Assembly (NCBI RefSeq): GCF_056712565.1
Contig: NZ_CM160072.1
Length of the DNA: 64,000 bases
Strand: one strand, 5' to 3'
Below are positions 6,145 to 18,134 of the stretch, in pieces. The stretch's first letter is position 1. The number at the start of each line of letters is the position of its first letter. The notes below the pieces were generated by a model. That model was given only the letters and a program-made list of their open reading frames with translations, was not told where the DNA came from and ran no database searches. Both the position numbers and the translations under genes were made by a program.

Positions 6145-6328
6145 ATCGTAAGAATAGAGCCTGACGGTAAGAAAACGCAAAAAGCGAGATATCTTCCATA
6201 AAAATGTATCGTTTGCAGAAGAATAAAAATAGCCTGGAAACCGCCTCGGGGAATAGGAAATAGCCAGGTGTGAATGGCTTTGTTAGTCGCTAAAGTTGGG
6301 CCATCTTATCTACAGGTGACGGATCGCC

Positions 6329-7249
6329 ATGACAAACTTTACGACCAGCACGCCGCATGACGCATTATTTAAATCCTTTCTCACACACTCTGACACCGCG
6401 CGGGATTTTATGGAGATCCACTTACCCAAAGATTTACGTGAACTGTGCGATCTCGATAGCTTAAAACTGGAATCCGCCAGCTTTGTCGATGAAAAATTGC
6501 GGGCGCTACATTCCGATATTCTGTGGTCGGTAAAGACCCGTGAAGGCGATGGCTATATTTATGTAGTGATTGAACATCAGAGCCGTGAGGATATTCATAT
6601 GGCCTTTCGTCTGATGCGATATTCCATGGCGGTGATGCAGCGCCATATCGAACATGATAAACGCCGGCAGCTACCACTGGTCATCCCGATGCTGTTTTAT
6701 CACGGTAGCCGTAGCCCTTATCCTTGGTCTTTGTGCTGGCTGGACGAATTTGCCGACCCAACTACCGCACGGAAGCTTTATACCGCCGCGTTCCCGCTGG
6801 TGGATATCACTGTCGTGCCAGACGACGAGATTGTGCAGCATCGCAGAGTCGCCCTGTTGGAGTTGATCCAAAAGCATATTCGCCAGCGCGATCTGATGGG
6901 GCTTATTGACCAACTGGTAGTATTACTGGTTACAGAGTGTGCTAATGACAGCCAGATAACTGCGCTGTTAAATTACATTTTACTGACTGGTGATGAAGCG
7001 CGTTTTAATGAGTTTATCAGTGAAATTACCCGTCGACTGCCACAACAAAGGGAGCGAATAATGACGATTGCAGAGCGAATTCATAATGATGGATATATAA
7101 AAGGGGAACAGCGCATTCTTCGATTGTTTTTGCAGAATGGGGTAGATCCTGAATGGATACAAAAGATTACCGGACTTTCGGCAGAGCAAATACAGGCATT
7201 AGAGCAGCCCTTGCCTGAGCGTGAGCCTTATTCATGGCTCAAGAGCTAA
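6329..7249 (+). CDS. rpnD: Rpn-family recombination-promoting nuclease (YhgA-like, PD-(D/E)XK transposase-like), apparently intact RpnD homologue
   Basis: 306-aa ORF beginning [20 protein letters not shown], typical Rpn N-terminus. K-12 has this locus split into yjiP/yjiQ as I recall; here it is one uninterrupted frame. Confidence 0.8.
7061..7249 (+). CDS. Candidate internally initiated small protein (RpnS-like) in frame with the rpn C-terminus
   Basis: In-frame ATG at 7061 preceded by a strong Shine-Dalgarno AGGGAG at 7048-7053 inside the rpn ORF; would give a 62-aa C-terminal peptide. Confidence 0.4.
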
Positions 7250-7275
7250 TCAGAGACGGATGACAAACGCAAAGC

Positions 7276-7374
7276 TGCCTGATGCGCTACGCTTATCAGA
7301 CCTACATTATCTCTGCAATCTATTGAATTTGCGCGGTTTGTAGGCCGGATAAGGCGTTCACGCCGCATCCGGCA
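7276..7374. repeat. REP (repetitive extragenic palindrome) elements downstream of rpn
   Basis: GCCTGATGCGCTACGCTTATCAGACCTAC and GTAGGCCGGATAAGGCGTTCACGCCGCATCCGGCA motifs typical of E. coli REP sequences. Confidence 0.7.
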
Positions 7375-7654
7375 TGAACGAAGCACACTTTACGTGGCGA
7401 TGATAGTGACCTTCCTGCACCAACCTTGCCGCCGCCATTTATGTGAACGGTACATTAACGCTGCTGGTGGCAGCAAATGCAGACCCGGTGCGTGTTACAG
7501 CAGGTGAGAGATGAACGGTTAAAGGATATTGGGTTATGCAGGGAGGATGTGGTGTAATGGAGAGAGTCCTTCACGAAACGATGGGATTTATATGTCACCT
7601 CGTCAGATAAGGGGTTATTATTGCGAAATCATCGCTTCACGGAAAGACGTCAGA

Positions 7655-9748
7655 ATGAAAGCTACAGAAGCCCGCCTACTCGATTTTTTAAAACGTTCGC
7701 AGCAGTTCGTTATTACCATTTATCAACGGACTTATTCATGGACAGAACAACAATGTCGGCAACTTTGGGACGACATCATTCGTGCCGGAAAGCGTGACGA
7801 TATATCAGCGCATTTTATCGGTTCGGTTGTTTATATTGAGCAGGGGTTGTATCAGGTTTCTGGTATTTCTCCGTTACTGGTCATTGATGGTCAACAAAGG
7901 CTGACGACCGCAATGTTGCTGATTGAGGCTTTATCGCGTCATCTTGGCGAAGACGAAGTTTTTGATGGCTTTTCAGCAATGAAATTGCGTAATTATTATT
8001 TACTCAATCCTTATGAGTCCGGCGAGAAAGGATTTAAATTACTGCTGACCGAGACTGATAAAGACAGTTTGCTGGCGTTAATAAAACAAAGACCAATGCC
8101 AGAAAACTATTCCCATCGAATAATGGAAAACTTTACTTTCTTTGATGAACAAATTACCAAACTCGGTGATGACTTGATCCCCTTATGTCGTGGGTTAGCA
8201 AAGTTATTAATTGTCGATGTGGCGCTTAATCGTGGTCAGGATAATCCGCAACTGATTTTTGAAAGTATGAACTCCACCGGTAAGGCATTAAGTCAGGCCG
8301 ATCTGGTGCGCAATTTTATTCTGATGGGCCTCGAACCAGAGCATCAAACCCGGTTGTATGAAGATCACTGGCGTCCAATGGAAGTCGCGTTTGGTCAGCA
8401 AGGTTACAGCGAATATTTTGACAGTTTTATGCGTCATTATCTGACGGTAAAAACGGGGGAGATCCCTCGGACAGATGAAGTCTATGAGGCATTTAAACTC
8501 CATGCCCGCAGCCAGAGTGTTGCTGAAAAAGGCGTAGATCGGCTGGTTGAAGATATTCACATCTACGCGGAGTATTACTGTGCAATGGCATTGGGAAAAG
8601 AAAGTGACAAATCGCTTGCTACGGCTTTTCAGGATTTGCGCGAGTTAAAGGTCGATGTGGCGTATCCTTTCTTACTGGCGCTTTATCATGACTATAAAAA
8701 TGGCGTTTTGTCTCACGAAGATTTCCTGAGCATAATTCGTTTAATTGAATCTTATGTTTTCCGCCGTGCAGTATGTGCGATTCCGACAAATTCTCTTAAC
8801 AAGACGTTTGCTACTTTTTATAAGGTCATTAATAAAGAAAAATATCTGGAAAGTATTCAGGTACATTTTCTGAATCTGCCTTCATATCGTCGTTTCCCCA
8901 ACGATGATGAATTTAAACGGGAATTAAAAGTTCGTGATCTCTATAATTTCCGTAGTCGCAGCTACTGGTTACGACGACTGGAAAACGATAAACGCAGAGA
9001 GCGCGTGGAAGAGTTTACGATTGAGCATATTATGCCGCAGAACGAAAATTTGTCGGCTAAATGGCGTGAAGAGCTGGGAAGTGACTGGCAACGCATTCAT
9101 AAAGAACTGTTGCATACGTTGGGGAATCTCACATTAACGCGCTATAACTCCCGCTACAGTGACAGACCTTTCGCGGAAAAACGCGATATTGAAGACGGCT
9201 TTAAACATAGCCCGCTCTATTTGAATATCGGTCTTGGACAGTGCGAAAAATGGGATGAAGCAGCCATTCGCGCCCGTGCAGATCGTCTGGCCGATCTCGC
9301 GGTTCAGGTCTGGCAAGCGCCTGCTCTTCCTGAAGAGGTTTTAGCTGTTTATCGGGCGCAGCCGGAGAACAAAACCAGTTACAGCCTGAGTGATTATCCT
9401 TTTCTTGCTGATGGTTCGCATAGCCGGGTGTTATTTGATCATCTTCGCGATGAAGTTATGCGCCTGGACGCAGGGATCACGCAGGAAGTTTTAAAGCTCT
9501 ATATTGCGTTTAAAGCTGAAACGAATTTTGTTGATGTTGTACCGCAAAAAAGCCGACTGCGGTTGTCGCTTAATATGCAGTTTCATGAACTGGTCGATCC
9601 GAAAGGTATTGCCAAAGATGTGACAAATGTTGGGCGATGGGGCAATGGTGATGTGGAAATTGGTTTCAGTGACCTCGCACAACTTCCTTACATTATGGGA
9701 TTAATTCGTCAGGCATTTGAAAAACAGATGGAGAGCGCGTTGGTATAA
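7655..9748 (+). CDS. DUF262 (ParB/Srx-like, DGQQR motif) plus DUF1524 (His-Me finger, HNH-like) fusion protein; putative GmrSD-family type IV modification-dependent restriction endonuclease
   Basis: ORF 7529..9748 (739 aa); start proposed at ATG 7655 (MKATEARLLDFLKRSQQFVITIYQRTYSW, ~697 aa). N-terminal motifs IYQRTYSW and VIDGQQRLTT; C-terminal motif EHIMPQNE...HTLGNLTLTRYN; a further ~100-aa C-terminal extension. Lies between rpn and symE-hsdSMR-mrr. Confidence 0.7.
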   Translation: MKATEARLLDFLKRSQQFVITIYQRTYSWTEQQCRQLWDDIIRAGKRDDISAHFIGSVVYIEQGLYQVSGISPLLVIDGQQRLTTAMLLIEALSRHLGEDEVFDGFSAMKLRNYYLLNPYESGEKGFKLLLTETDKDSLLALIKQRPMPENYSHRIMENFTFFDEQITKLGDDLIPLCRGLAKLLIVDVALNRGQDNPQLIFESMNSTGKALSQADLVRNFILMGLEPEHQTRLYEDHWRPMEVAFGQQGYSEYFDSFMRHYLTVKTGEIPRTDEVYEAFKLHARSQSVAEKGVDRLVEDIHIYAEYYCAMALGKESDKSLATAFQDLRELKVDVAYPFLLALYHDYKNGVLSHEDFLSIIRLIESYVFRRAVCAIPTNSLNKTFATFYKVINKEKYLESIQVHFLNLPSYRRFPNDDEFKRELKVRDLYNFRSRSYWLRRLENDKRRERVEEFTIEHIMPQNENLSAKWREELGSDWQRIHKELLHTLGNLTLTRYNSRYSDRPFAEKRDIEDGFKHSPLYLNIGLGQCEKWDEAAIRARADRLADLAVQVWQAPALPEEVLAVYRAQPENKTSYSLSDYPFLADGSHSRVLFDHLRDEVMRLDAGITQEVLKLYIAFKAETNFVDVVPQKSRLRLSLNMQFHELVDPKGIAKDVTNVGRWGNGDVEIGFSDLAQLPYIMGLIRQAFEKQMESALV

Positions 9749-9762
9749 CGTGGCGAATAATA

Positions 9763-9786
9763 CCCGGTAGCACTGGCGCTACCGGG
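9763..9786. terminator. Hairpin between the convergent GmrSD-like gene and symE (possible bidirectional terminator)
   Basis: Inverted repeat CCCGGTAGC / GCTACCGGG with a 6-nt loop; no clear U-tract, so weak. Confidence 0.35.
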
Positions 9787-9794
9787 TCAATGTA

Positions 9795-10136
9795 TCAGGC
9801 GACTTTCTGTTTACCCGCAATCACCCCAATAAACTCCTGCACCTGCCTTTGTTTACGCGCCGACAGCTTGCACACCTGGCGAAGCGACTGCATCAGTTCG
9901 CTCTCTTCGGCGGCGGGGGGTTGGGCGGTGAGGACAATACAGCCTTCCATCACTTTGACATCTATCGCCGTGCCAGTGGCAAAACCGGCGGCTTCCAGCC
10001 ACTGACCTTTCAGGGTGATGGCGGGAATACGGCTGTAATCCGGGTAGCGACTCGCATAACTCACGGTTAATTGACGGTTATTTGCCGGGGAGACTTCTGC
10101 TTCGAACGGTTGTGCAATAGAATGCGTGTCAGTCAT
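9795..10136 (-). CDS. symE: SOS-induced toxin-like protein SymE (AbrB/SpoVT fold)
   Basis: ORF 9795..10193; start set at [15 protein letters not shown] (113 aa) matching K-12 SymE; LexA-box-like site upstream. Confidence 0.88.
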
Positions 10137-10207
10137 GATTACTATTCTCCATAAATAGTGATTGTGATGAGCGGTGCGGGTGTGTTGGCGCACATCCGCA
10201 TCGCGCT
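10131..10207 (+). ncRNA. symR: SymR antisense sRNA (approximate bounds) overlapping the symE start and 5-prime UTR
   Basis: Placed by established knowledge of the symE/SymR type I-like pair; coordinates approximate, not derived from a promoter or terminator read. Confidence 0.4.
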
Positions 10208-10364: not shown

Positions 10365-11732
10365 TCAGGACTTTTTACGCGAGGCTTTTTTACCCCCGCT
10401 GGCTGCGCGTTCAGCTTTGATTTTCTCCAGCAACGCGGCGGCGCTGTTTTCACCGCTGATTAATTCCGGGTTTTCGGCCCGCCACTGGGCGGTGAGTTCA
10501 CCACGGAACGCTTTTGCCAGGATGGATTGCGTCAGATTGTTGACGCGGGCTAAGGCGTTGTTGACCTGTTTTTCTATTGTGTCGGCGTAGGCGAAGAGTT
10601 GCTCGACGCGGCGAACGATTTCAGCTTGTTCGGGAAGGGGGGGAACAGTTATTGGGTATGCAATTAATTTCTGTGCATTAATATTTGATTGACTGACCCC
10701 ATCAGATTTAACTGAATAGCAATATTGTCTCCCCAAAATGCTATTTAAATGGTAGTTAAGATAGTCAGGGTTTAAATCAGGTAAACATTGAACCCTAATC
10801 AAATAACCTGCATAAATAGCTGGTTGCTCTGATTTATATATGGCTGTTTTCCCGACAAGTTCAGGACTATTTGTACGATTGAATAATACATCATTGTACT
10901 CAAGTTTATACTTTTCAATTTCTATGGTATCTGACGTATAGACTAGATCCGTCCAGTCCAACTTTCCTCCCTGAAGATTGCCCATTCTTAATACAGGAAT
11001 GAGTCCTTCTTTATTAGACTTAGATGACGTTCCGTAACTTGGTTTTTTTATAAACTCCCCAAGTTTGCCTTCTCTCCACCCAGACAGGCTTGAATTATCT
11101 CTCCAGTCTTCAGTTAGTTTTCCTCTCACCGCTGCACCCAGAACCGCCTGACGAAAACGTTTCAGGATTTGTGGGATTTGCTCAAGACGTGCTTTGGTGC
11201 TGTCTACCTGTGCCAGCAGCGTATCGAGTTTTTCAGCGATGATTTTTTGTTCGGCAAACGGTACAAGAACAAATGGTAATGTTTTCGCAGAACTACCAGA
11301 AATTTCTTTAAAAGTTGTTCCTGTGCCCATTTCCTCTGCAATATGTCTGATGTTGCGGAGAAAGTAATATGCATAATCAGGAAAAATGTCTGAAGGAAAA
11401 GCAAAACTTTTGAAACCCTGGTTAGTCGCAATCTCATTTGCAGCAATAGCAACATATCCAATCGGTGCCCGGCTACTAAAAAGTATAGTGCCTTTGGGCA
11501 TTAGTTTTGCTGAACAAGAGGAATAGCCTAGTGTAGTTAAATCTCTGGCACCATGTGAGATATATTTCTCTTTATAACCGCTCAAATCGGCAGGCGTAAG
11601 CCAGGCGACTCCCTCACCCGAAGGTGCAAAATTTTCAGCGACTCCCGATTTTGGTGTCCCACCAGAGATGACATCAGCAATGTCGCCTATTTCAATCTGT
11701 TCCCACCCCTCCGGCAATTTCCCAGCACTCAT
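10365..11732 (-). CDS. hsdS: Type I restriction-modification specificity subunit HsdS (type IA framework, non-EcoKI target-recognition domains)
   Basis: 455-aa ORF; N-terminal MSAGKLPEGW, central PFAEQKIIAEKLDTLLAQVDSTKAR...ILKRFRQAVLG and C-terminal PPLPEQAEIVRRVEQLFAYADTIEKQVNN...KAFRGELTAQWRAENP framework segments conserved, variable blocks between; 4-nt overlap with the hsdM stop. Confidence 0.9.
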   Translation of the reverse strand: MSAGKLPEGWEQIEIGDIADVISGGTPKSGVAENFAPSGEGVAWLTPADLSGYKEKYISHGARDLTTLGYSSCSAKLMPKGTILFSSRAPIGYVAIAANEIATNQGFKSFAFPSDIFPDYAYYFLRNIRHIAEEMGTGTTFKEISGSSAKTLPFVLVPFAEQKIIAEKLDTLLAQVDSTKARLEQIPQILKRFRQAVLGAAVRGKLTEDWRDNSSLSGWREGKLGEFIKKPSYGTSSKSNKEGLIPVLRMGNLQGGKLDWTDLVYTSDTIEIEKYKLEYNDVLFNRTNSPELVGKTAIYKSEQPAIYAGYLIRVQCLPDLNPDYLNYHLNSILGRQYCYSVKSDGVSQSNINAQKLIAYPITVPPLPEQAEIVRRVEQLFAYADTIEKQVNNALARVNNLTQSILAKAFRGELTAQWRAENPELISGENSAAALLEKIKAERAASGGKKASRKKS

Positions 11733-13318
11733 TCCTTCACCCCACCAAATGCTTCTTCCAGCAACTGGCGCTGCGCATCCGCCTCATCGCTCGCCCCCAG
11801 TTCACGCATCAGCGCATCCAGTTCAGACAGCGCCTGTACCAGTTCACCCATCGCTTCTGCCGCTAATACATCCGGCTCCGGCAGGTTGTCGGCATCAATA
11901 CTGTCTTTATCTTTCAGCCAGGAGATATCCAGCGAATCGGATTTCGCGGTGCGGATCCACTCGCGGCTGAACTTGCGCCAGCGGCTGGTAGCAAGATGCT
12001 GGTCGGTGTTTTTGTTCTCTTCGCTGTCGGCAATTTCCGTCTCTTCGGCGTTAAAACTCCATTCACCTTCAGTGCGCGGGCTTAAGCCGTGCGGGTCTTC
12101 GCCAAACACGCGCTCAAACGGTTGCAAATGCTCGTCGGTAAACGGCGTGCGTTTACCAAAGCTCGGCATATTGGTCCGCAGGTCGTACACCCACACGTCA
12201 TCGGTGCAGTTCTTATCCTGATTCGGGTTCGCCACCGTCCCTTTGATAAAGAACAGCACGTTGGTCTTCACGCCCTGCGCGTAAAAAATACCGGTCGGCA
12301 GACGCAGAATAGTGTGCAGATGACACTTATCCATCAGGTCACGACGGATGTCCGTACCTTTGCCGCCTTCAAACAGCACGTTATCCGGCACCACCACCGC
12401 CGCACGACCGCCGGGGTGCAGCGTTTCGATAATATGCTGCATAAAGCACAACTGTTTGTTGCTGGTCGGGTGAACAAAGGTGCGGGTAATGTTGGTGCCT
12501 GCGGCGCTGCCAAACGGCGGGTTAGTGGCGACAATATGCGCCTTCGGCAGGTTTTCGCCGTCGCTGCCCAGGGTGTTGCCCAGACGGATTGCGCCGCCGT
12601 GGTCGAGGTTGCCTTCAATATCGTGCAGCAGGCAGTTCATCAGCGCCAGACGACGGGTGCCGGGCACCAGTTCGAGGCCGATAAACGCGCGGTGGATCTG
12701 GAAATCCTGCGTGTCGCCATCAAGGTCGTCCAGATCGTTAGTCTGCGACTTAACGTAGCGGTCGGCTTCAATCAAAAAGCCCGCCGTACCGGCTGCCGGA
12801 TCCTGTACCACTTCACGTGGCTGCGGTTTCAGCAGATGAATAATGGTTTTAATCAGCGGACGCGGGGTGAAGTACTGGCCCGCGCCAGACTTGGTTTCAT
12901 TGGCGTTCTTCTGCAGCAGCCCTTCGTACATATCGCCGAAGTCATCGCGCGACTTACCGTGCGCACCGTTGTACCAGTCCAGTGAATCCATATTGCTGAC
13001 CAGTGCGGTTATTTGTTTCGGCTCGGTGATGGTGGTACTAACATTATGAAAAACTGCCTGTACCAGCTTTTTGTCATCTTCGCCTAAATGCACGAGCATT
13101 TTTCGGTAGAACTGCAACTGCTCCTGGCCGATGCGGGATTTCAGGTCATCCCAGCGGTAACCTTCCGGCAGGTATTCCGCTTCCTGCCCGGTCTCTTTAC
13201 ACATTTTCAAAAACAGCAGCGAGGCGAGTTCATTGACGTAGTTTTGATAGGAAACGCCGCCATCGCGCAGGTTGTCGCACAGCTTCCACAGCTTCGCGAC
13301 CAGATCGTTATTGTTCAT
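11729..13318 (-). CDS. hsdM: Type I R-M N6-adenine DNA methyltransferase subunit HsdM
   Basis: 529-aa ORF; NPPF catalytic motif (IVATNPPFGSAAG) and AdoMet-binding region; same length as K-12 HsdM. Confidence 0.95.
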   Translation of the reverse strand: MNNNDLVAKLWKLCDNLRDGGVSYQNYVNELASLLFLKMCKETGQEAEYLPEGYRWDDLKSRIGQEQLQFYRKMLVHLGEDDKKLVQAVFHNVSTTITEPKQITALVSNMDSLDWYNGAHGKSRDDFGDMYEGLLQKNANETKSGAGQYFTPRPLIKTIIHLLKPQPREVVQDPAAGTAGFLIEADRYVKSQTNDLDDLDGDTQDFQIHRAFIGLELVPGTRRLALMNCLLHDIEGNLDHGGAIRLGNTLGSDGENLPKAHIVATNPPFGSAAGTNITRTFVHPTSNKQLCFMQHIIETLHPGGRAAVVVPDNVLFEGGKGTDIRRDLMDKCHLHTILRLPTGIFYAQGVKTNVLFFIKGTVANPNQDKNCTDDVWVYDLRTNMPSFGKRTPFTDEHLQPFERVFGEDPHGLSPRTEGEWSFNAEETEIADSEENKNTDQHLATSRWRKFSREWIRTAKSDSLDISWLKDKDSIDADNLPEPDVLAAEAMGELVQALSELDALMRELGASDEADAQRQLLEEAFGGVKE

Positions 13319-13519
13319 TGTGAGTTCCGTAAATTAAACAACGGCCCGCATTGTTTGGGGCCGCAGAAGAAGAAATTGCCGAGGGTAATATACACAAAAT
13401 CATTCAGGTTGCATCAAGGCGGCAAGTGAGTGAATCCCCGGGAGCGTACAGAAGTACGTGACCGGGGTGAACGAGCGCAGCCAACGCAGAGGCAGCCTGA
13501 AGGATGAAGTGTATACGTG

Positions 13520-16500
13520 TCAGGCCAGCTCGTCCCAGATATAATCGCTGAATTTATCAAGCAGGTTGTCGAGATTATCGTCAAAGGTTCTTTGTAGCAT
13601 CGCCTTACCGCCGCGGCGGTGGAAGTTGCCGGTTTTGAAGACATCGTCGTCGAGCACCACTTTCTCTTTCAGCGCCTGCGCTAAACGATCGAGCCAGCTT
13701 AATTGCTCGCTGCTCCAGTCGTTTTCACCCTTAATGCGCGTCAGCGCGTGATCGACACGTTCCTCAAACGGTTTCAGCGCATCGCCCACCGCAGCGCGGC
13801 GAATATGACCAATCAGCCGGGCGGCGATATCTTCATTGCGCGTCTCTTTCCATGCTTTGCGCAGGGAAGATTCCTCAAAATGCTGGCGGTCAAACCACTC
13901 CTGGAGCTCGACCAGCCCTTTACGGGTGAGATCGCGCGGGCGATTGATCACCGCCTGCAATGCCGGCTGCGCGTTCGGGGAACGTTGCACCAGCGAGTCA
14001 AAGGCTTCGAGGAAATCCTGCGGCGTGTCGTAATCACCGTACAGCGATTTTACACTCACCACTTCATCGTCGATATCGAGGAAGATCGGCGCATCATTCA
14101 GGTTGTTGATGTCCGTTTTCAGCTTTTCCAGACGGGCGATAAAGCCAGGCAGTTTGTTAAAGACTTCGGCGCTCCAGTGCGGCCCTTTTTCCCGCAGGCG
14201 CGAGGCGAAGCCGTTAAAGTTCACGCCCGCCGCGTCCTGGCATAGCTCATCCAGACGACGCACCTGTTTATCTATCGTTTCGCTGCGGTCACGGTTAAAC
14301 GTGGCCAGGCCGATGATGCGCTGGAGCTTCGCCACCAATTGTTCATGGCTGTGCTCGGCAAAGCTACGGCCATCCGCTTCGGTGATTTTATAGGTTTCTG
14401 AATCGGTAATTTCATTGACCAGCGTTTGCAGTTCCACCTTCGGACGCACCACCACCGGACGCATGGTGTCGACGCTCTCCAGCGTGCTGTAGATATCGAC
14501 ACAGTCGAAAATCTTAAAGCTGGTTTTATTCACGTCCGGGCATAAGCGCGTGGCGCGGCCTTTCATCTGCTCGTACAGAATACGGCTGCGTACTTTACGC
14601 AGGAACACGATATTACAGATCGACGGAATATCGACGCCGGTTGTCAGCAGGTCGACGGTTACCACGATATTGGGCAGCCGCTCTTTATTGAAGCGGGTGA
14701 TCATGGTCTGCACTTTGCGCGCGTCTTTATCGGCATCACCGGTGATCTTGATGATCGCGTCGTGCTCCAGTTGCGGATACTTTTTCTTGAACGCGGTACG
14801 CAACTCTTCCACCACCATATCGGCATGGGCATTGGTAACGCAGAAGACCAGCGTTTTTTGCGACCCGGTCGGGTCAAGGTAGTTGGTGAGCTCGTTACAG
14901 ACGGCGCGGTTAAACGCCGGGATCACCAGGCCACGGTTAAAGTCGGCGACCTCAAAATCCTGATCGTCTTCCAGGGTATCGTTGATCACTTCTCCCTGCG
15001 GGCTGATGCGCTCTACCTGTTCGCCCTTGGAGAGATAAACCCCCTCCTGGGCGTTGCGGGTGATGATCTGAATCGGCGGATCCTGGTCGATCAGAAAACC
15101 GTCGATAACCGCGGTACGGTAGGTATAACGGTAAACCGGCTCGCCGAAAATCTGCACCGTATGCAGCGCCGGGGTGGCGGTGAGGGCGATTTTTACCGCA
15201 TCGAAGTGATCGAGAATGCGACGGTAGGCAGAAACGTAATCCAGCTGGCTGCGGAACTGCAGCTCGCCTTCGGTCTGCTCTTTATCGAGAATATAGCCGC
15301 GATGCGCTTCATCGACGACGATACAGTCGTAACGGGCCACCGGCATCGGTTCATCTGATTGTAGGGTGCGTTTCACCAGCGACTGTACGGTGGCAACGTG
15401 AATTTTGGTGCTGTCTTCGGGGAATTTATCCGTCAGCCCTTTAATGTCGAAAATGCTGTTGAAGGTGTCGCCGTTAATACGCGTATCTTCAAACGCCCCC
15501 AGTGCCTGCTCGCCAAGAGAACGGCGATCGACAAGGAAGAGAATGCGTTTAAAACGCTGGGACTGGATCAGGCGGAACATCATGGCAATTGCGGTGCGGG
15601 TTTTACCGGTACCGGTCGCCATCGCCAGCAGGATCTCTTGTTGACCCTTGACGATTGCCTTTTCCACCGCGCGGACGGCATCTTCCTGGTAATAACGCAG
15701 GCCCAGCTCGCTCATGCCCGGGTTATCGGCAAACCACTGATTCTGTTTTTGCGGTTCGCTGCCGAGCATTTCCAGCAGCTCTTCCGGGCGATGCCACTCG
15801 GGTAAGGCTTTCGACATATTGCGGGTATCACGCACGTCGCGATACCAGATGCCACTTTTAGTCTTCATTGCTGCGCGATATTCGCGCCCGTTGGTGGAGT
15901 AGCAGAAGGGGATTTTAAACCGTTGTTGGCCGCTGGTGTCCTGCCAGCTAGTTTCATACTCCGGCACAGCTTCATGCACTTCATCCGGTGAGTAATGCTC
16001 AAGCAAGGTTTCCCGCAGGAAGCCATTATCGAAGCATTTGCTGTAGCGATACGACTCATTGAGCTTGCCGGGAACGTCGATATTTTTACGTTTCGCCTCT
16101 ACCACCGCGATGGGCTTGAGGCCGACAAACAGCACATAATCCGCAAAGCCCTGATTACCCGTTTCATCTTTCCCGGTCGGCCATTCGGCAATGGCTTTAT
16201 TGACGCCGGGTTCCGGGCGTGCGCCTTTGGAGAAGCGCAGGGTTTTGCTATCGGCCTGCCAGCCTGCTTTACGCAGTTGCGCGTCAATCAGGAAGCGACT
16301 CTCTTCTTCGCTAAGGTTGAGTGTGCGCTTGATGGCCTGATCGGTAATTTCTTTGTGGTAAGCCTTACGTTCCTGTTCGGTCTGTTTGGCCAGCTCCGCG
16401 TTCTTCTCGGCGAGCTGTGCTTCCAGCGCCGCAAGGCGAGCCTGGGTTTGCGCTTCTGTTTCCTGCTGTTTGCCTTCCAGAATGGCGATATAGCCGTTCA

Positions 16501-17032
16501 GGGCAACCAGCTTCTGCTGTTGCGCTTCGACTTCTGCCCGAGTCTGCGCTTTTTCTCGCGCCTGCTGTTCAAGCTGTTGTTTTAGCGTCAGCACTTCCTG
16601 GTGATAGAGGTTTTCGCCACGTTCCGGCAACACAAATACCGGCACCGGGAAGTCATAATCTTTGGTGACCAGACGGTAGTACCAGACAGCCAGGCGGAAC
16701 CCGAGTCGCAGGCACATCTGGGCATCGTCGAGATCGTTATGGTATTCGTGCACCGCCTGGTTACCAATGCGGCGTAATTTGTGGAATACAGAGAGAATGT
16801 TGTCATCAACGAAGGCGATTTTGCCGAGTTCGCGCAGGAGATCGTGTTGATTCTCACAAGGGGGGATGTTGAGTAACAGACCAAGATGTTTCGCTGTAGC
16901 TTCGCCAAACATACGCATTTTAATCAGCGTCGTGTTGGGATCATCCGGGTAGTTATTTTCCGCCGCACAGGCGATGGCATAAGTGAAGTCGTTGACGCCC
17001 TTCAGGAATTCGAAGTTGGATTTATTCATCAT
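13520..17032 (-). CDS. hsdR: Type I R-M restriction subunit HsdR (SF2 helicase/translocase plus endonuclease)
   Basis: 1170-aa ORF; Walker A (AMATGTGKT) and DEAH-like (VVDEAHR) helicase motifs; synteny. Confidence 0.95.
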   Translation of the reverse strand: MMNKSNFEFLKGVNDFTYAIACAAENNYPDDPNTTLIKMRMFGEATAKHLGLLLNIPPCENQHDLLRELGKIAFVDDNILSVFHKLRRIGNQAVHEYHNDLDDAQMCLRLGFRLAVWYYRLVTKDYDFPVPVFVLPERGENLYHQEVLTLKQQLEQQAREKAQTRAEVEAQQQKLVALNGYIAILEGKQQETEAQTQARLAALEAQLAEKNAELAKQTEQERKAYHKEITDQAIKRTLNLSEEESRFLIDAQLRKAGWQADSKTLRFSKGARPEPGVNKAIAEWPTGKDETGNQGFADYVLFVGLKPIAVVEAKRKNIDVPGKLNESYRYSKCFDNGFLRETLLEHYSPDEVHEAVPEYETSWQDTSGQQRFKIPFCYSTNGREYRAAMKTKSGIWYRDVRDTRNMSKALPEWHRPEELLEMLGSEPQKQNQWFADNPGMSELGLRYYQEDAVRAVEKAIVKGQQEILLAMATGTGKTRTAIAMMFRLIQSQRFKRILFLVDRRSLGEQALGAFEDTRINGDTFNSIFDIKGLTDKFPEDSTKIHVATVQSLVKRTLQSDEPMPVARYDCIVVDEAHRGYILDKEQTEGELQFRSQLDYVSAYRRILDHFDAVKIALTATPALHTVQIFGEPVYRYTYRTAVIDGFLIDQDPPIQIITRNAQEGVYLSKGEQVERISPQGEVINDTLEDDQDFEVADFNRGLVIPAFNRAVCNELTNYLDPTGSQKTLVFCVTNAHADMVVEELRTAFKKKYPQLEHDAIIKITGDADKDARKVQTMITRFNKERLPNIVVTVDLLTTGVDIPSICNIVFLRKVRSRILYEQMKGRATRLCPDVNKTSFKIFDCVDIYSTLESVDTMRPVVVRPKVELQTLVNEITDSETYKITEADGRSFAEHSHEQLVAKLQRIIGLATFNRDRSETIDKQVRRLDELCQDAAGVNFNGFASRLREKGPHWSAEVFNKLPGFIARLEKLKTDINNLNDAPIFLDIDDEVVSVKSLYGDYDTPQDFLEAFDSLVQRSPNAQPALQAVINRPRDLTRKGLVELQEWFDRQHFEESSLRKAWKETRNEDIAARLIGHIRRAAVGDALKPFEERVDHALTRIKGENDWSSEQLSWLDRLAQALKEKVVLDDDVFKTGNFHRRGGKAMLQRTFDDNLDNLLDKFSDYIWDELA

Positions 17033-17219: not shown

Positions 17220-18134
17220 ATGACGGTTCCTACCTATGACAAATTTATTGAACCTGTTCTGCGTTATCTGGCAACAAAACCGGAAGGTGCAGCCGCGCGT
17301 GATGTTCATGAGGCTGCCGCGGATGCATTAGGACTGGATGACAGCCAGCGATCGAAAGTCATTACCAGCGGACAACTTGTTTATAAAAATCGTGCAGGCT
17401 GGGCACATGACCGTTTAAAACGTGCCGGGTTGTCGCAAAGTTTGTCGCGTGGCAAATGGTGCCTGACTCCTGCGGGTTTTGACTGGGTTGCGTCTCATCC
17501 CCAGCCAATGACGGAGCAGGAGATGAACCATCTGGCCTTCAATTTTGTGAATGTCAAACTTAAGTCACGGCCGGATGCCGTCGATTTAGATCCGAAAGCC
17601 GACTCTCCCGATCATGAAGAACTTGCAAAGAGCAGCCCGGACGATCGGTTAGATCAGGCGCTAAAAGAGCTTCGTGATGCGGTGGCTGATGAGGTTCTGG
17701 AAAACTTATTGCAGGTTTCTCCTTCGCGCTTTGAAGTCATTGTTCTGGATGTTTTGCATCGCCTGGGGTATGGCGGCCACCGTGATGATTTGCAGCGTGT
17801 TGGCGGTACTGGAGATGGTGGCATCGATGGTGTGATATCGCTTGATAAACTTGGCCTGGAGAAAGTTTATGTTCAGGCAAAACGTTGGCAGAATACTGTA
17901 GGCAGGCCAGAATTACAGGCATTTTACGGCGCACTGGCTGGGCAAAAAGCGAAACGTGGGGTGTTTATTACCACTTCTGGATTTACTTCTCAGGCGCGTG
18001 ACTTTGCCCAATCCGTCGAGGGTATGGTGTTGGTTGATGGGGAACGCCTGGTGCACTTAATGATCGAAAACGAAGTAGGGGTTTCTTCACGTTTGTTGAA
18101 GGTGCCGAAACTGGATATGGATTATTTTGAGTGA
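17220..18134 (+). CDS. mrr: Mrr type IV methylation-dependent restriction endonuclease
   Basis: 304-aa ORF with N-terminal winged-helix and C-terminal Mrr-cat region; divergent from hsdR as in K-12. Confidence 0.92.
   Translation: MTVPTYDKFIEPVLRYLATKPEGAAARDVHEAAADALGLDDSQRSKVITSGQLVYKNRAGWAHDRLKRAGLSQSLSRGKWCLTPAGFDWVASHPQPMTEQEMNHLAFNFVNVKLKSRPDAVDLDPKADSPDHEELAKSSPDDRLDQALKELRDAVADEVLENLLQVSPSRFEVIVLDVLHRLGYGGHRDDLQRVGGTGDGGIDGVISLDKLGLEKVYVQAKRWQNTVGRPELQAFYGALAGQKAKRGVFITTSGFTSQARDFAQSVEGMVLVDGERLVHLMIENEVGVSSRLLKVPKLDMDYFE

Follow-up and report, generated by a model that had tools for sequence, protein, structure and literature searches.

A single-chain GmrSD-family nuclease gene with a C-terminal DUF5655 domain in the immigration control region of Escherichia coli

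A cassette between rpn and symE

We examined the part of the E. coli immigration control region (ICR) where K-12 carries mcrBC, in a strain that has no mcrBC there. In the 64,000-nucleotide stretch of contig NZ_CM160072.1 that we analysed (assembly GCF_056712565.1; hereafter the window), the gene order is rpn, a nuclease gene, symE, hsdS, hsdM, hsdR and mrr. The left neighbour, rpn, encodes an Rpn family recombination-promoting nuclease (6329..7249, + strand); to the right lie symE (9795..10136, − strand), which is transcribed towards the nuclease gene, together with the antisense RNA symR (10131-10207, + strand), the type IA restriction-modification (R-M) genes (10365..17032, − strand; hsdS 10365-11732, hsdM 11729-13318, hsdR 13520-17032) and mrr, for a type IV restriction endonuclease (17220..18134, + strand). 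The annotation agrees with the neighbourhood recognised in an earlier note made from the sequence.

The K-12 order at the corresponding position is rpnD-yjiR-yjiS-yjiT-yjiV-mcrC-mcrB-symE. A 2.2-kb cassette without a K-12 counterpart by BLASTN (7556..9798; GC 44.0%) stands in place of yjiT-yjiV-mcrC-mcrB, between a yjiS remnant and symE; its left edge is marked by remnants of yjiR (7395-7471, 77 bp) and of the 3' end of yjiS (7465-7555, 91 bp), which together span 7395..7555 and are 88% identical to K-12 by BLASTN, and its right end is the symE stop codon. The earlier note held that this strain had swapped McrBC for another nuclease; mcrBC is indeed absent and the K-12 yjiT-yjiV-mcrCB segment replaced, but the direction of replacement is not given by these data. 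The gene is also AT-rich, as that note had it: its GC content is 43.7%, whereas the window as a whole has 51.1% and yjiN, hsdM and hsdR have 53-55%.

One intact open reading frame

The ORF listing gave one uninterrupted frame at 7529..9748 (+ strand), 739 codons from a TTG that merely opens the mechanical ORF. Translation of the nuclease gene likely starts at ATG 7655, giving a coding sequence at 7655..9748 (+ strand) of 697 amino acids plus stop; the same ATG is the start in an earlier RefSeq model (APECO1_RS28005, WP_000648248.1), and homologues of 697-701 amino acids align from the methionine that it encodes. The ORF of about 700 residues proposed previously is thus an intact 697-residue protein. 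A sigma-70-like promoter match (ATGTCA-18-TATTAT; 7592..7621, + strand) lies 34 nt upstream of the ATG, in a region where promoter and terminator scans returned a number of matches not above chance.

Current RefSeq divides this ORF into a pseudogene, covering the 5' part, and a second coding sequence. The split is wrong, an annotation artefact, because the allele of strain 536, which has proline at position 21 where the window protein has threonine, is split identically. Residues 219-310, which the split leaves out, contain columns that are invariant across the family, and the linker between the two catalytic domains is conserved across it, so that the ORF is one protein and not two. Gene decay, as suggested by the pseudogene label, was rejected on the same split in strain 536, on the uninterrupted frame and on these invariant columns. 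Surveys are affected by this annotation: searches of current RefSeq proteomes for DUF262 and DUF1524 in one protein miss this common gene.

Two catalytic domains and a C-terminal module

The N-terminal part of the protein is a DUF262/GmrSD_N domain of the ParB/Srx-like NTPase/sensor type (residues 9-222; 7679..8320, + strand; PF03235, E 1.3e-32), and a helical linker evident in the alignment and the model (residues ~223-414; 8321..8896, + strand) joins it to a DUF1524/GmrSD_C His-Me finger nuclease domain (residues 415-547; 8897..9295, + strand; PF07510, E 1.5e-26). The motifs from which this pairing had been proposed are all present (YQRTYSW at 23-29, DGQQR at 78-82, nt 7886-7900, EHIMPQ at 457-462 and GNLTL at 490-494), and profile searches upheld it, with both Pfam families and GmrSD-like models of the PADLOC defence catalogue matching, among them an Orf5/DndI-type model at 735 bits over residues 10-553; a search of the protein against NCBIfam gave no match. 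In an alignment of 33 sequences, with identity down to 42%, YQR (23-25), D78-G-Q-Q-R82, F202 and N206 of the F202xxxN206 motif within DUF262, and N491 of DUF1524 are invariant, while E457-H458 (nt 9023-9028) and N498, also of DUF1524, are at least 90% conserved. All catalytic motifs of the two domains are retained.

The protein ends in a further module (residues 556-697; 9320..9745, + strand) that includes a match to Pfam DUF5655 (PF18899; residues 591-690, nt 9425-9724, E 3.4e-13). The earlier note had left about 100 C-terminal residues without an assignable function; they are present, but DUF5655 covers the stretch. The AlphaFold model of the nuclease is confident (pLDDT 87.3), with residues ~214-443 all-helical and strands predicted at 455-458 and 492-495.

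Relatives and a proposed function

The prototype GmrSD enzymes, EcoCT596 GmrSD and Eco94GmrSD, are collinear with the window protein through DUF262, helical linker and DUF1524 and have its YQR, DGQQR and (D/E)H...N...N motifs in common; residues 1-625 of CT596 GmrSD align with window residues 1-553 at 23.5% identity (BLASTP, E 2e-28). The window protein differs in having some 140 additional C-terminal residues, the DUF5655 module, and its gene is chromosomal, in the ICR, whereas the prototype is prophage-borne. The PADLOC models of HEC-06, an experimentally validated system, match residues 8-555 over their full length (E 2.7e-66) but stop at ~560 residues and hence lack the DUF5655 domain. HEC-06 consists of one protein, needs no partner for defence, was found embedded in Hma systems, and loses defence when its DGQQR or EH motif is mutated (Payne et al. 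2024, bioRxiv 10.1101/2024.01.29.577857); equivalent motif mutants of TgvB likewise abolish defence. BrxU, embedded in BREX, and TgvAB, embedded in type I systems, are GmrSD-family enzymes that restrict Tevenvirinae with modified cytosines. Their embedding in operons resembles that of the window gene's homologues, although BrxU is remote from the window protein (BLASTP E 0.027, Foldseek E 3e-5), and TgvAB requires two proteins where the window enzyme is a single chain.

We consider it probable that the gene encodes a stand-alone single-chain restriction nuclease of the GmrSD family, working as follows; by analogy with its relatives it would most likely be an NTP-gated His-Me nuclease with hypermodified phage DNA as its substrate, and we infer both its modification dependence and its specificity. 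The ParB-like DUF262 domain would bind and hydrolyse NTP through YQR and DGQQR and sense the state of the DNA, an activity proposed because of mutants of BrxU, SspE, DndI, HEC-06 and TgvAB, the motifs themselves being in place here. This step would license the beta-beta-alpha-metal nuclease of DUF1524 (E457-H458, N491, N498), and invading DNA would be nicked or cut. The likeliest targets would be hypermodified phage genomes, for example those with sugar-modified hydroxymethylcytosine, that the adjacent type I system fails to restrict; judging from family behaviour and genomic context, the enzyme would complement HsdRMS and Mrr. DUF5655, which is kept throughout the lineage and has a recognisable fold, probably serves as an accessory for substrate recognition or regulation.

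Comparison of the model with solved structures by Foldseek gave significant PDB matches to DndI (9jfl, E 3.3e-16, TM 0.59), SspE (7drs, E 2.8e-14) and BrxU (7p9k, E 3e-5) only, in keeping with kinship to GmrSD relatives. The earlier note named BrxU and SspE-like enzymes as related defence nucleases; DndI and SspE are the closest solved structures, and the likeness to BrxU is much weaker than its framing had implied. DndI (PDB 9JFL) and SspE (6JIV, 7DRS) are nearest by sequence as well as by fold, DndI being first by sequence (E 2.4e-12), and have in common with the window protein the design of an NTPase plus a His-Me nuclease; they are 16-18% identical to it, lack DUF5655, and work together with phosphorothioation genes (dnd or ssp) that are missing around the window gene. 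That the nearest solved relatives are phosphorothioate-sensing nickases counts against a modified-cytosine model.

The enzyme could instead be a nickase like DndI and SspE, in which the NTPase domain recognises a self mark made by the adjacent type I methyltransferase; the mark would keep the enzyme off the host's own DNA, so that DNA of an invader is attacked for being unmarked rather than hypermodified. DndI's closeness in both sequence and fold fits such a mode of action, as does the best PADLOC model, 'Orf5' being the old name of dndI, and the lineage, like DndI and SspE, typically shares its locus with a DNA-modification module, here type I operons. We nonetheless think it unlikely. No dndBCDE or sspABCD genes were found in the annotated APEC O1 region of ~43 kb that matches window positions 1-43451, nor were dnd or ssp modification genes found in the homologous loci examined; HEC-06 and BrxU, which are single-chain relatives, protect a heterologous host unaided; and near-identical orthologues accompany type I systems that belong to unrelated families and differ in specificity, lie beside BREX, or occur without any R-M system. 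With partners so varied, a sequence-specific methyl mark is unlikely to be what the orthologues read.

A mobile lineage in type I operons

We examined 10 loci encoding close homologues, the window included. The gene lies within a type I operon, co-oriented with it and with overlapping stop and start codons, in 6/10 (6/9 outside the window), and adjoins a type I system in two more, one being the window; at the remaining two it follows BrxL and lies beside Mks/Wadjet-like genes, respectively. Across these loci the nuclease is 71-89% identical, whereas the flanking HsdR and HsdM are just 23-38% identical, and one orthologue inside a type I operon belongs to another phylum. The DUF5655-bearing nuclease lineage combines high conservation with horizontal mobility, and is usually found between hsdS and hsdR of otherwise unrelated type I operons. 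The window gene itself is not between same-strand type I genes: it is convergent with hsdSMR, with symE in between. This convergence, and with it the lack of co-transcription with hsdSMR in E. coli, counts against the proposed model.

The hsdS-hsdR slot is also that of PrrC. A role as a guard of this kind would have the nuclease remain inactive until HsdRMS is knocked out by an anti-restriction protein of a phage, with DUF5655 contacting the R-M complex or the inhibitor. Most homologous operons hold the gene in the PrrC position; DUF5655 recurs in PDC-S18, a candidate embedded in R-M, BREX and DISARM systems, and in a 307-residue protein next to hsdR; and an acidic, frataxin-like domain suits protein contacts. 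We regard a guard role as highly improbable all the same, as partner HsdR and HsdM proteins of such low identity speak against a conserved protein-protein interface, and the hsdS-hsdR gap behaves as an insertion hotspot, which also carries many unrelated defence genes, namely Abi_C, Abi_2, Fic, RVT, HipA and AAA_13. Predicted HsdS-, HsdM- and HsdR-DUF5655 fusions, taken as a sign of physical coupling to type I systems, were rejected as deletion-like products, because all of them have the form expected after a deletion inside an hsdS-X or hsdR-X operon; several keep part of GmrSD_C, and one adjoins an integrase on a short contig.

The DUF5655 module (helix, antiparallel sheet, helix) has, in the model, the alpha/beta fold of the YdhG/YjbR/CyaY 'double-wing' proteins. 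It is 9-15% identical to YdhG-like, MmcQ-YjbR (DUF419) and CyaY proteins and to the C-terminal domain of T4 MotA; it also differs in being acidic, with a pI from composition of ~5.2 (family median 5.2). DNA binding by DUF5655, an idea that came from the similarity to YjbR and MotA, is made less likely by this composition. An acidic DUF5655 fits a simple DNA-binding role poorly, a further point against the proposed model.

A known gene and its T21 allele

The gene is already known. He et al. 2015 (Sci Rep 5:9747, PMC4437046) described it at this ICR locus, listed it as APECO1_2080 / UTI89_C5048 / c5421 and proposed the same role; window 7655-9748 matches positions 4967613-4969706 of APEC O1 at 100% identity. 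Silas et al. 2025 (Nat Commun 16:7828, PMC12373910) placed it in CLS_001, their commonest enterobacterial GmrSD cluster, and assayed a CLS_001 representative against T-even phages; just 5/12 additional systems were active against these phages (PMC12373910). CLS_001/APECO1_2080 and the window gene are the same gene with the same neighbours (rpn, symE, hsdSMR, mrr, yjiA), and the window allele is its T21 variant, with no other structural difference. With a description at this locus in 2015 and a second listing in 2025, the gene is ordinary as a discovery and carries little weight as one, and the view that it was the window's best candidate for an uncharacterised defence activity is overstated. 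A paper-text search for its protein and locus accessions found no mention, and the texts of He et al. 2015 and Silas et al. 2025 do not discuss the C-terminal DUF5655 domain. The new details are the DUF5655 fold, the orthologues in type I operons, DndI and SspE as nearest structures, the P21T substitution and the RefSeq split.

Codon 21 of the window gene is ACC (7715..7717, + strand), placing threonine in the motif IPIYQR. Position 21 is proline in all 118 other family members examined, making T21 unique among 119 sequences, and the equivalent residue is proline in five relatives compared by eye (CT596, BrxU, DndI and two SspE proteins). T21 is a derived variant in an otherwise invariant motif.

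P21T might disable or attenuate the NTPase/sensor domain, leaving an allele that is crippled or silent and restricts nothing; that the allele may be attenuated also counts against the proposed model. The singularity of T21, the proline conserved as far as CT596 GmrSD, BrxU, DndI and SspE, and the sole difference from strain 536, whose protein is identical except for Pro21, are consistent with such a loss. RefSeq moreover calls the 5' part a pseudogene, and several GmrSD enzymes are highly toxic on expression, so that attenuating mutations could be selected. We judge this unlikely: the 697-codon frame is intact with all catalytic residues kept, the exact T21 protein is on at least 1,000 contigs, the codon-21 region of the window allele is in 222 complete genomes, and the RefSeq split is an artefact that strikes the P21 allele of strain 536 too.

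A broader proposal, which we hold to be quite unlikely, is that the DUF5655 lineage forms a distinct GmrSD subclass whose acidic double-wing domain couples the nuclease to type I restriction, with the widespread ST95-type P21T allele selected as an attenuated or re-tuned form. Such coupling would run through reading a DNA state made by the type I system or through sensing DNA-mimic anti-restriction proteins, and would explain why type I families that are unrelated, and in different phyla, have taken up near-identical copies (71-89%) in their hsdS-hsdR gap.

The gene is present in roughly one in four complete E. coli genomes, mainly from ExPEC/APEC-type strains, and may therefore narrow the range of hosts open to therapeutic phages of the T-even-like kind. 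GmrSD homologues occur in 12% of 9,040 ICR loci (EcoSal Plus 2025 review, PMC12707154).

A three-domain GmrSD-family nuclease in the immigration control region

The uninterrupted forward-strand frame at 7529–9748 opens with TTG at 7529, merely the first possible start; the likely start is the ATG at 7655, giving a nuclease of 697 aa. The earlier RefSeq model has the identical gene of APEC O1 begin at this ATG (APECO1_RS28005, 4967613–4969706), and the alignment of 697–701-aa homologues from many taxa begins at the same Met. An earlier note had read DUF262 and DUF1524 domains into this frame, and both are real: within a single intact frame, Pfam matched GmrSD_N/DUF262 at residues 9–222 (E = 1.3e-32) and GmrSD_C/DUF1524 at 415–547 (E = 1.5e-26), followed by DUF5655 at 591–690 (E = 3.4e-13). 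The motifs it had named were likewise present (YQRTYSW, 23–29; DGQQR, 78–82; EHIMPQ, 457–462; GNLTL, 490–494). In a family alignment with identities down to 42%, D78-G-Q-Q-R82, F202, N206 and N491 are invariant, and Y23, Q24, R25, E457, H458 and N498 show conservation of 90% or more.

Current RefSeq annotation (PGAP) cuts this intact 697-codon ORF in two on identical sequence (window 7655–8308 and 8585–9748), a split seen in APEC O1, strain 536 and all of the best 20 matches: one piece is a pseudogene, 'DUF262 domain-containing protein, missing C-terminus', and the other a separate 387-aa CDS, WP_072002093.1. The full-length protein, WP_000648248.1, is the earlier RefSeq model. A two-domain nuclease gene annotated in this way escapes surveys relying on current RefSeq proteins.

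In the window, yjiN, rpn and the nuclease gene are followed on the opposite strand by symE (with symR), hsdS, hsdM and hsdR, and then by mrr; K-12 has rpnD, yjiR, yjiS, yjiT, yjiV, mcrC, mcrB and symE at the same site. Gene order and BLASTN against K-12 bear out the proposed placing of the nuclease where K-12 carries yjiR–yjiV and mcrCB: 7556–9798 has no K-12 counterpart, its left edge lying at remnants of yjiR and yjiS (77 bp and 91 bp, at 7395–7555) and its right edge exactly at the symE stop. From these breakpoints, a 2.2-kb cassette occupies the place of ~7.6 kb in K-12 (yjiT to mcrB). The gene is also AT-rich, as claimed, at 43.7% GC (window, 51.1%; yjiN, hsdM and hsdR, 53–55%).

The remnants at 7395–7555 are 88% identical to K-12; WP_020233658.1, an annotated 26-aa 'hypothetical protein' (7477–7557), falls within the yjiS 3′ remnant and is therefore probably a yjiS relic, judged by position rather than reading frame. 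Two genes that K-12 has between yjiN and rpnD, mdtM and ytiE, are missing at ~6179–6183, where the K-12 alignment skips over them. Both hsdS target-recognition regions (10632–11102 and 11258–11701) are dissimilar to K-12 hsdS, in contrast to its conserved central and terminal parts, so the recognition sequence of this type IA system should differ from that of EcoKI; hsdS is AT-rich (44% GC). Identity to APEC O1 is 99.3–100% up to 43451, just past yjjG, where APEC O1 continues into an integrase and lambdoid prophage and the window has different content.

Kinship with DndI and SspE

The top PADLOC model was 'Orf5' (735 bits, residues 10–553), an old name of dndI (PMC4198939), followed by HEC-06 (E = 2.7e-66, residues 8–555) and type IV mREase models; PDC-S18 matched the last ~100 residues. 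Among PDB sequences, DndI 9JFL was the best match (E = 2.4e-12) and SspE the next, and the search did not reach BrxU. Using an AlphaFold model of the full-length nuclease built on 33 sequences (pLDDT 87.3), Foldseek returned only seven significant PDB matches, all of them DndI, SspE or BrxU chains: DndI at E = 3e-16 (TM 0.59), SspE at best E = 3e-14 and BrxU at E = 3e-5. The earlier note had named BrxU and SspE-like enzymes as related; by sequence and predicted structure the nuclease is nearer to DndI and SspE than to BrxU. Such kinship makes a DndI/SspE-like reader of self marks a rival reading; the annotation of the APEC O1 stretch matching the window up to 43451 contains no dnd or ssp genes.

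The prototype GmrSD of E. coli CT596, its sequence drawn from a published alignment, is collinear with residues 1–553 (23.5% identity, E = 2e-28), in agreement with the '24%' that He et al. 2015 (PMC4437046) gave for this gene. The prototype stops at the point where the additional C-terminal module of the nuclease starts. Motif conservation together with the profile, structure and prototype matches indicates that the predicted protein has every sequence and fold hallmark of the GmrSD family.

Codon 21 (7715–7717) is ACC, encoding Thr. In each of the other 118 family sequences this residue is Pro, part of the IPIYQR motif, and CT596 GmrSD, BrxU, DndI and SspE have Pro as well; the strain 536 protein differs from that of the window solely by P21. 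An inactive window allele is thus a rival reading to be weighed. The T21 variant is common: the exact protein is found on at least 1,000 contigs, IHE3034 among them, and 222 of 1,233 matching complete genomes carry the 63 nt around codon 21 without a mismatch.

The C-terminal DUF5655 module

Searching 1.84 billion representative proteins with residues 556–697 gave 1,447 relatives; of the top 150, most are the C-terminal ends of DUF262–DUF1524 proteins of ~700 aa or fragments thereof. AFDB50 matches with the same three-domain architecture came from Helicobacter, Bacteroides, Eubacterium, Moraxella, Proteus, Chloroflexota and the archaeon Methanobrevibacter. YjbR/MmcQ domains have been described as 'double-wing' putative DNA binders and are present in nuclease–EVE fusions (PMC7641849), and McrB-N has distant similarity to YjbR (PMC3424535). 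The domain here has a YdhG/YjbR/CyaY-like fold but is acidic (pI 5.2; family median 5.2), and so it is its fold that we assign, with recognition, regulation or protein contact as possible roles. PDC-S18 candidates carry the same DUF5655 subtype, which is also present as tandem copies; apparent fusions to HsdS, HsdM or the C-terminus of HsdR resemble deletion products and were rejected as evidence of coupling to type I enzymes. At L020, an enterobacterial locus resembling the immigration control region, a 307-aa DUF5655 protein (L020 1–329) directly 3′ of hsdR has the length of a PDC-S18 candidate, and the opposite flank of the type I operon holds a full-length orthologue of the window nuclease.

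Genomic contexts and proposed role

At least 80% of a 2.55-kb query is present in 1,358 of 5,426 complete E. coli genomes; the query's 172,773 matches in E. coli genomes are due to REP-type palindromic repeats in the intergenic DNA 3′ of rpn (7250–7400). Beyond E. coli, proteins of ~700 aa with 70% identity or more are found in many Gammaproteobacteria and also in Kiritimatiella glycovorans, of the phylum Kiritimatiellota.

We compared nine further close-homologue loci, ten including the window. At L002, L004, L007, L008, L009 and L015-17 the gene lies within a type I operon on the same strand with overlapping stop and start codons, mostly between hsdS and hsdR; it is divergent from hsdMSR at L020, convergent with hsdSMR in the window, after BrxL at L018 and beside Mks/Wadjet-like genes at L003. 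The nucleases are 71–89% identical between loci, whereas the flanking HsdR and HsdM are merely 23–38% identical, except in one pair sharing the whole operon; even in E. coli the neighbour is type IA in the window and type IB in strain 536. By these comparisons the nuclease appears to be conserved, cassette-like, across unrelated type I operons. Other occupants of the hsdS–hsdR gap are Abi_C, Abi_2, Fic, RVT, HipA and AAA_13 genes, so the gap behaves as a defence-gene hotspot. Machnicka et al. 2015 and, later, Payne et al. 2024 had already connected GmrSD homologues with type I loci (RloF). This linkage makes a PrrC-like guard of type I restriction a further rival; two remoter relatives (45–50% identity) lack it.

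The best-supported reading is that of an NTP-gated His-Me nuclease that would act by itself against invading DNA, most likely that with hypermodified bases, complementing the adjoining type I system and Mrr. It draws on the conserved motifs, on the loss of defence when DGQQR or (D/E)H is mutated in HEC-06 and TgvB, or (D/E)H in BrxU, and on the action of the embedded relatives TgvAB and BrxU against Tevenvirinae. Architecture, motifs, predicted fold and context we observed in the nuclease itself; NTP gating, modification dependence and target phages we infer.

The earlier note had ranked the gene as the best candidate in the window for an uncharacterised defence activity, but it has been described before. 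He et al. 2015 (PMC4437046) listed APECO1_2080, UTI89_C5048, c5421, ECP_4674 and further genes of the immigration control region as diverged GmrSD homologues, with the neighbours seen here and no McrBC, and suggested that they restrict T-even phages; an EcoSal Plus 2025 review counted GmrSD homologues in 12% of 9,040 such loci; and Silas et al. 2025 assigned WP_000648248.1 (APECO1_RS28005) to CLS_001, the largest of their enterobacterial clusters, and synthesised one representative per group, 15 in all, for phage assays. The finding is thus not new: the observation holds and its interpretation is supported, but the gene is an ordinary one. Our additions are modest, namely the DUF5655 fold, the cassette-like conservation, the closer DndI/SspE kinship, the P21T allele and the RefSeq mis-annotation.

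E. coli 536 (L021, 10646–12298) carries a second, different GmrSD-family gene (CLS_005, 550 aa) at the position of mrr in the window. On a metagenomic contig (L010, 5817–10094), two tandem DUF262–DUF1524–DUF5655 paralogues of 698 and 697 aa recall two-gene GmrSD systems.
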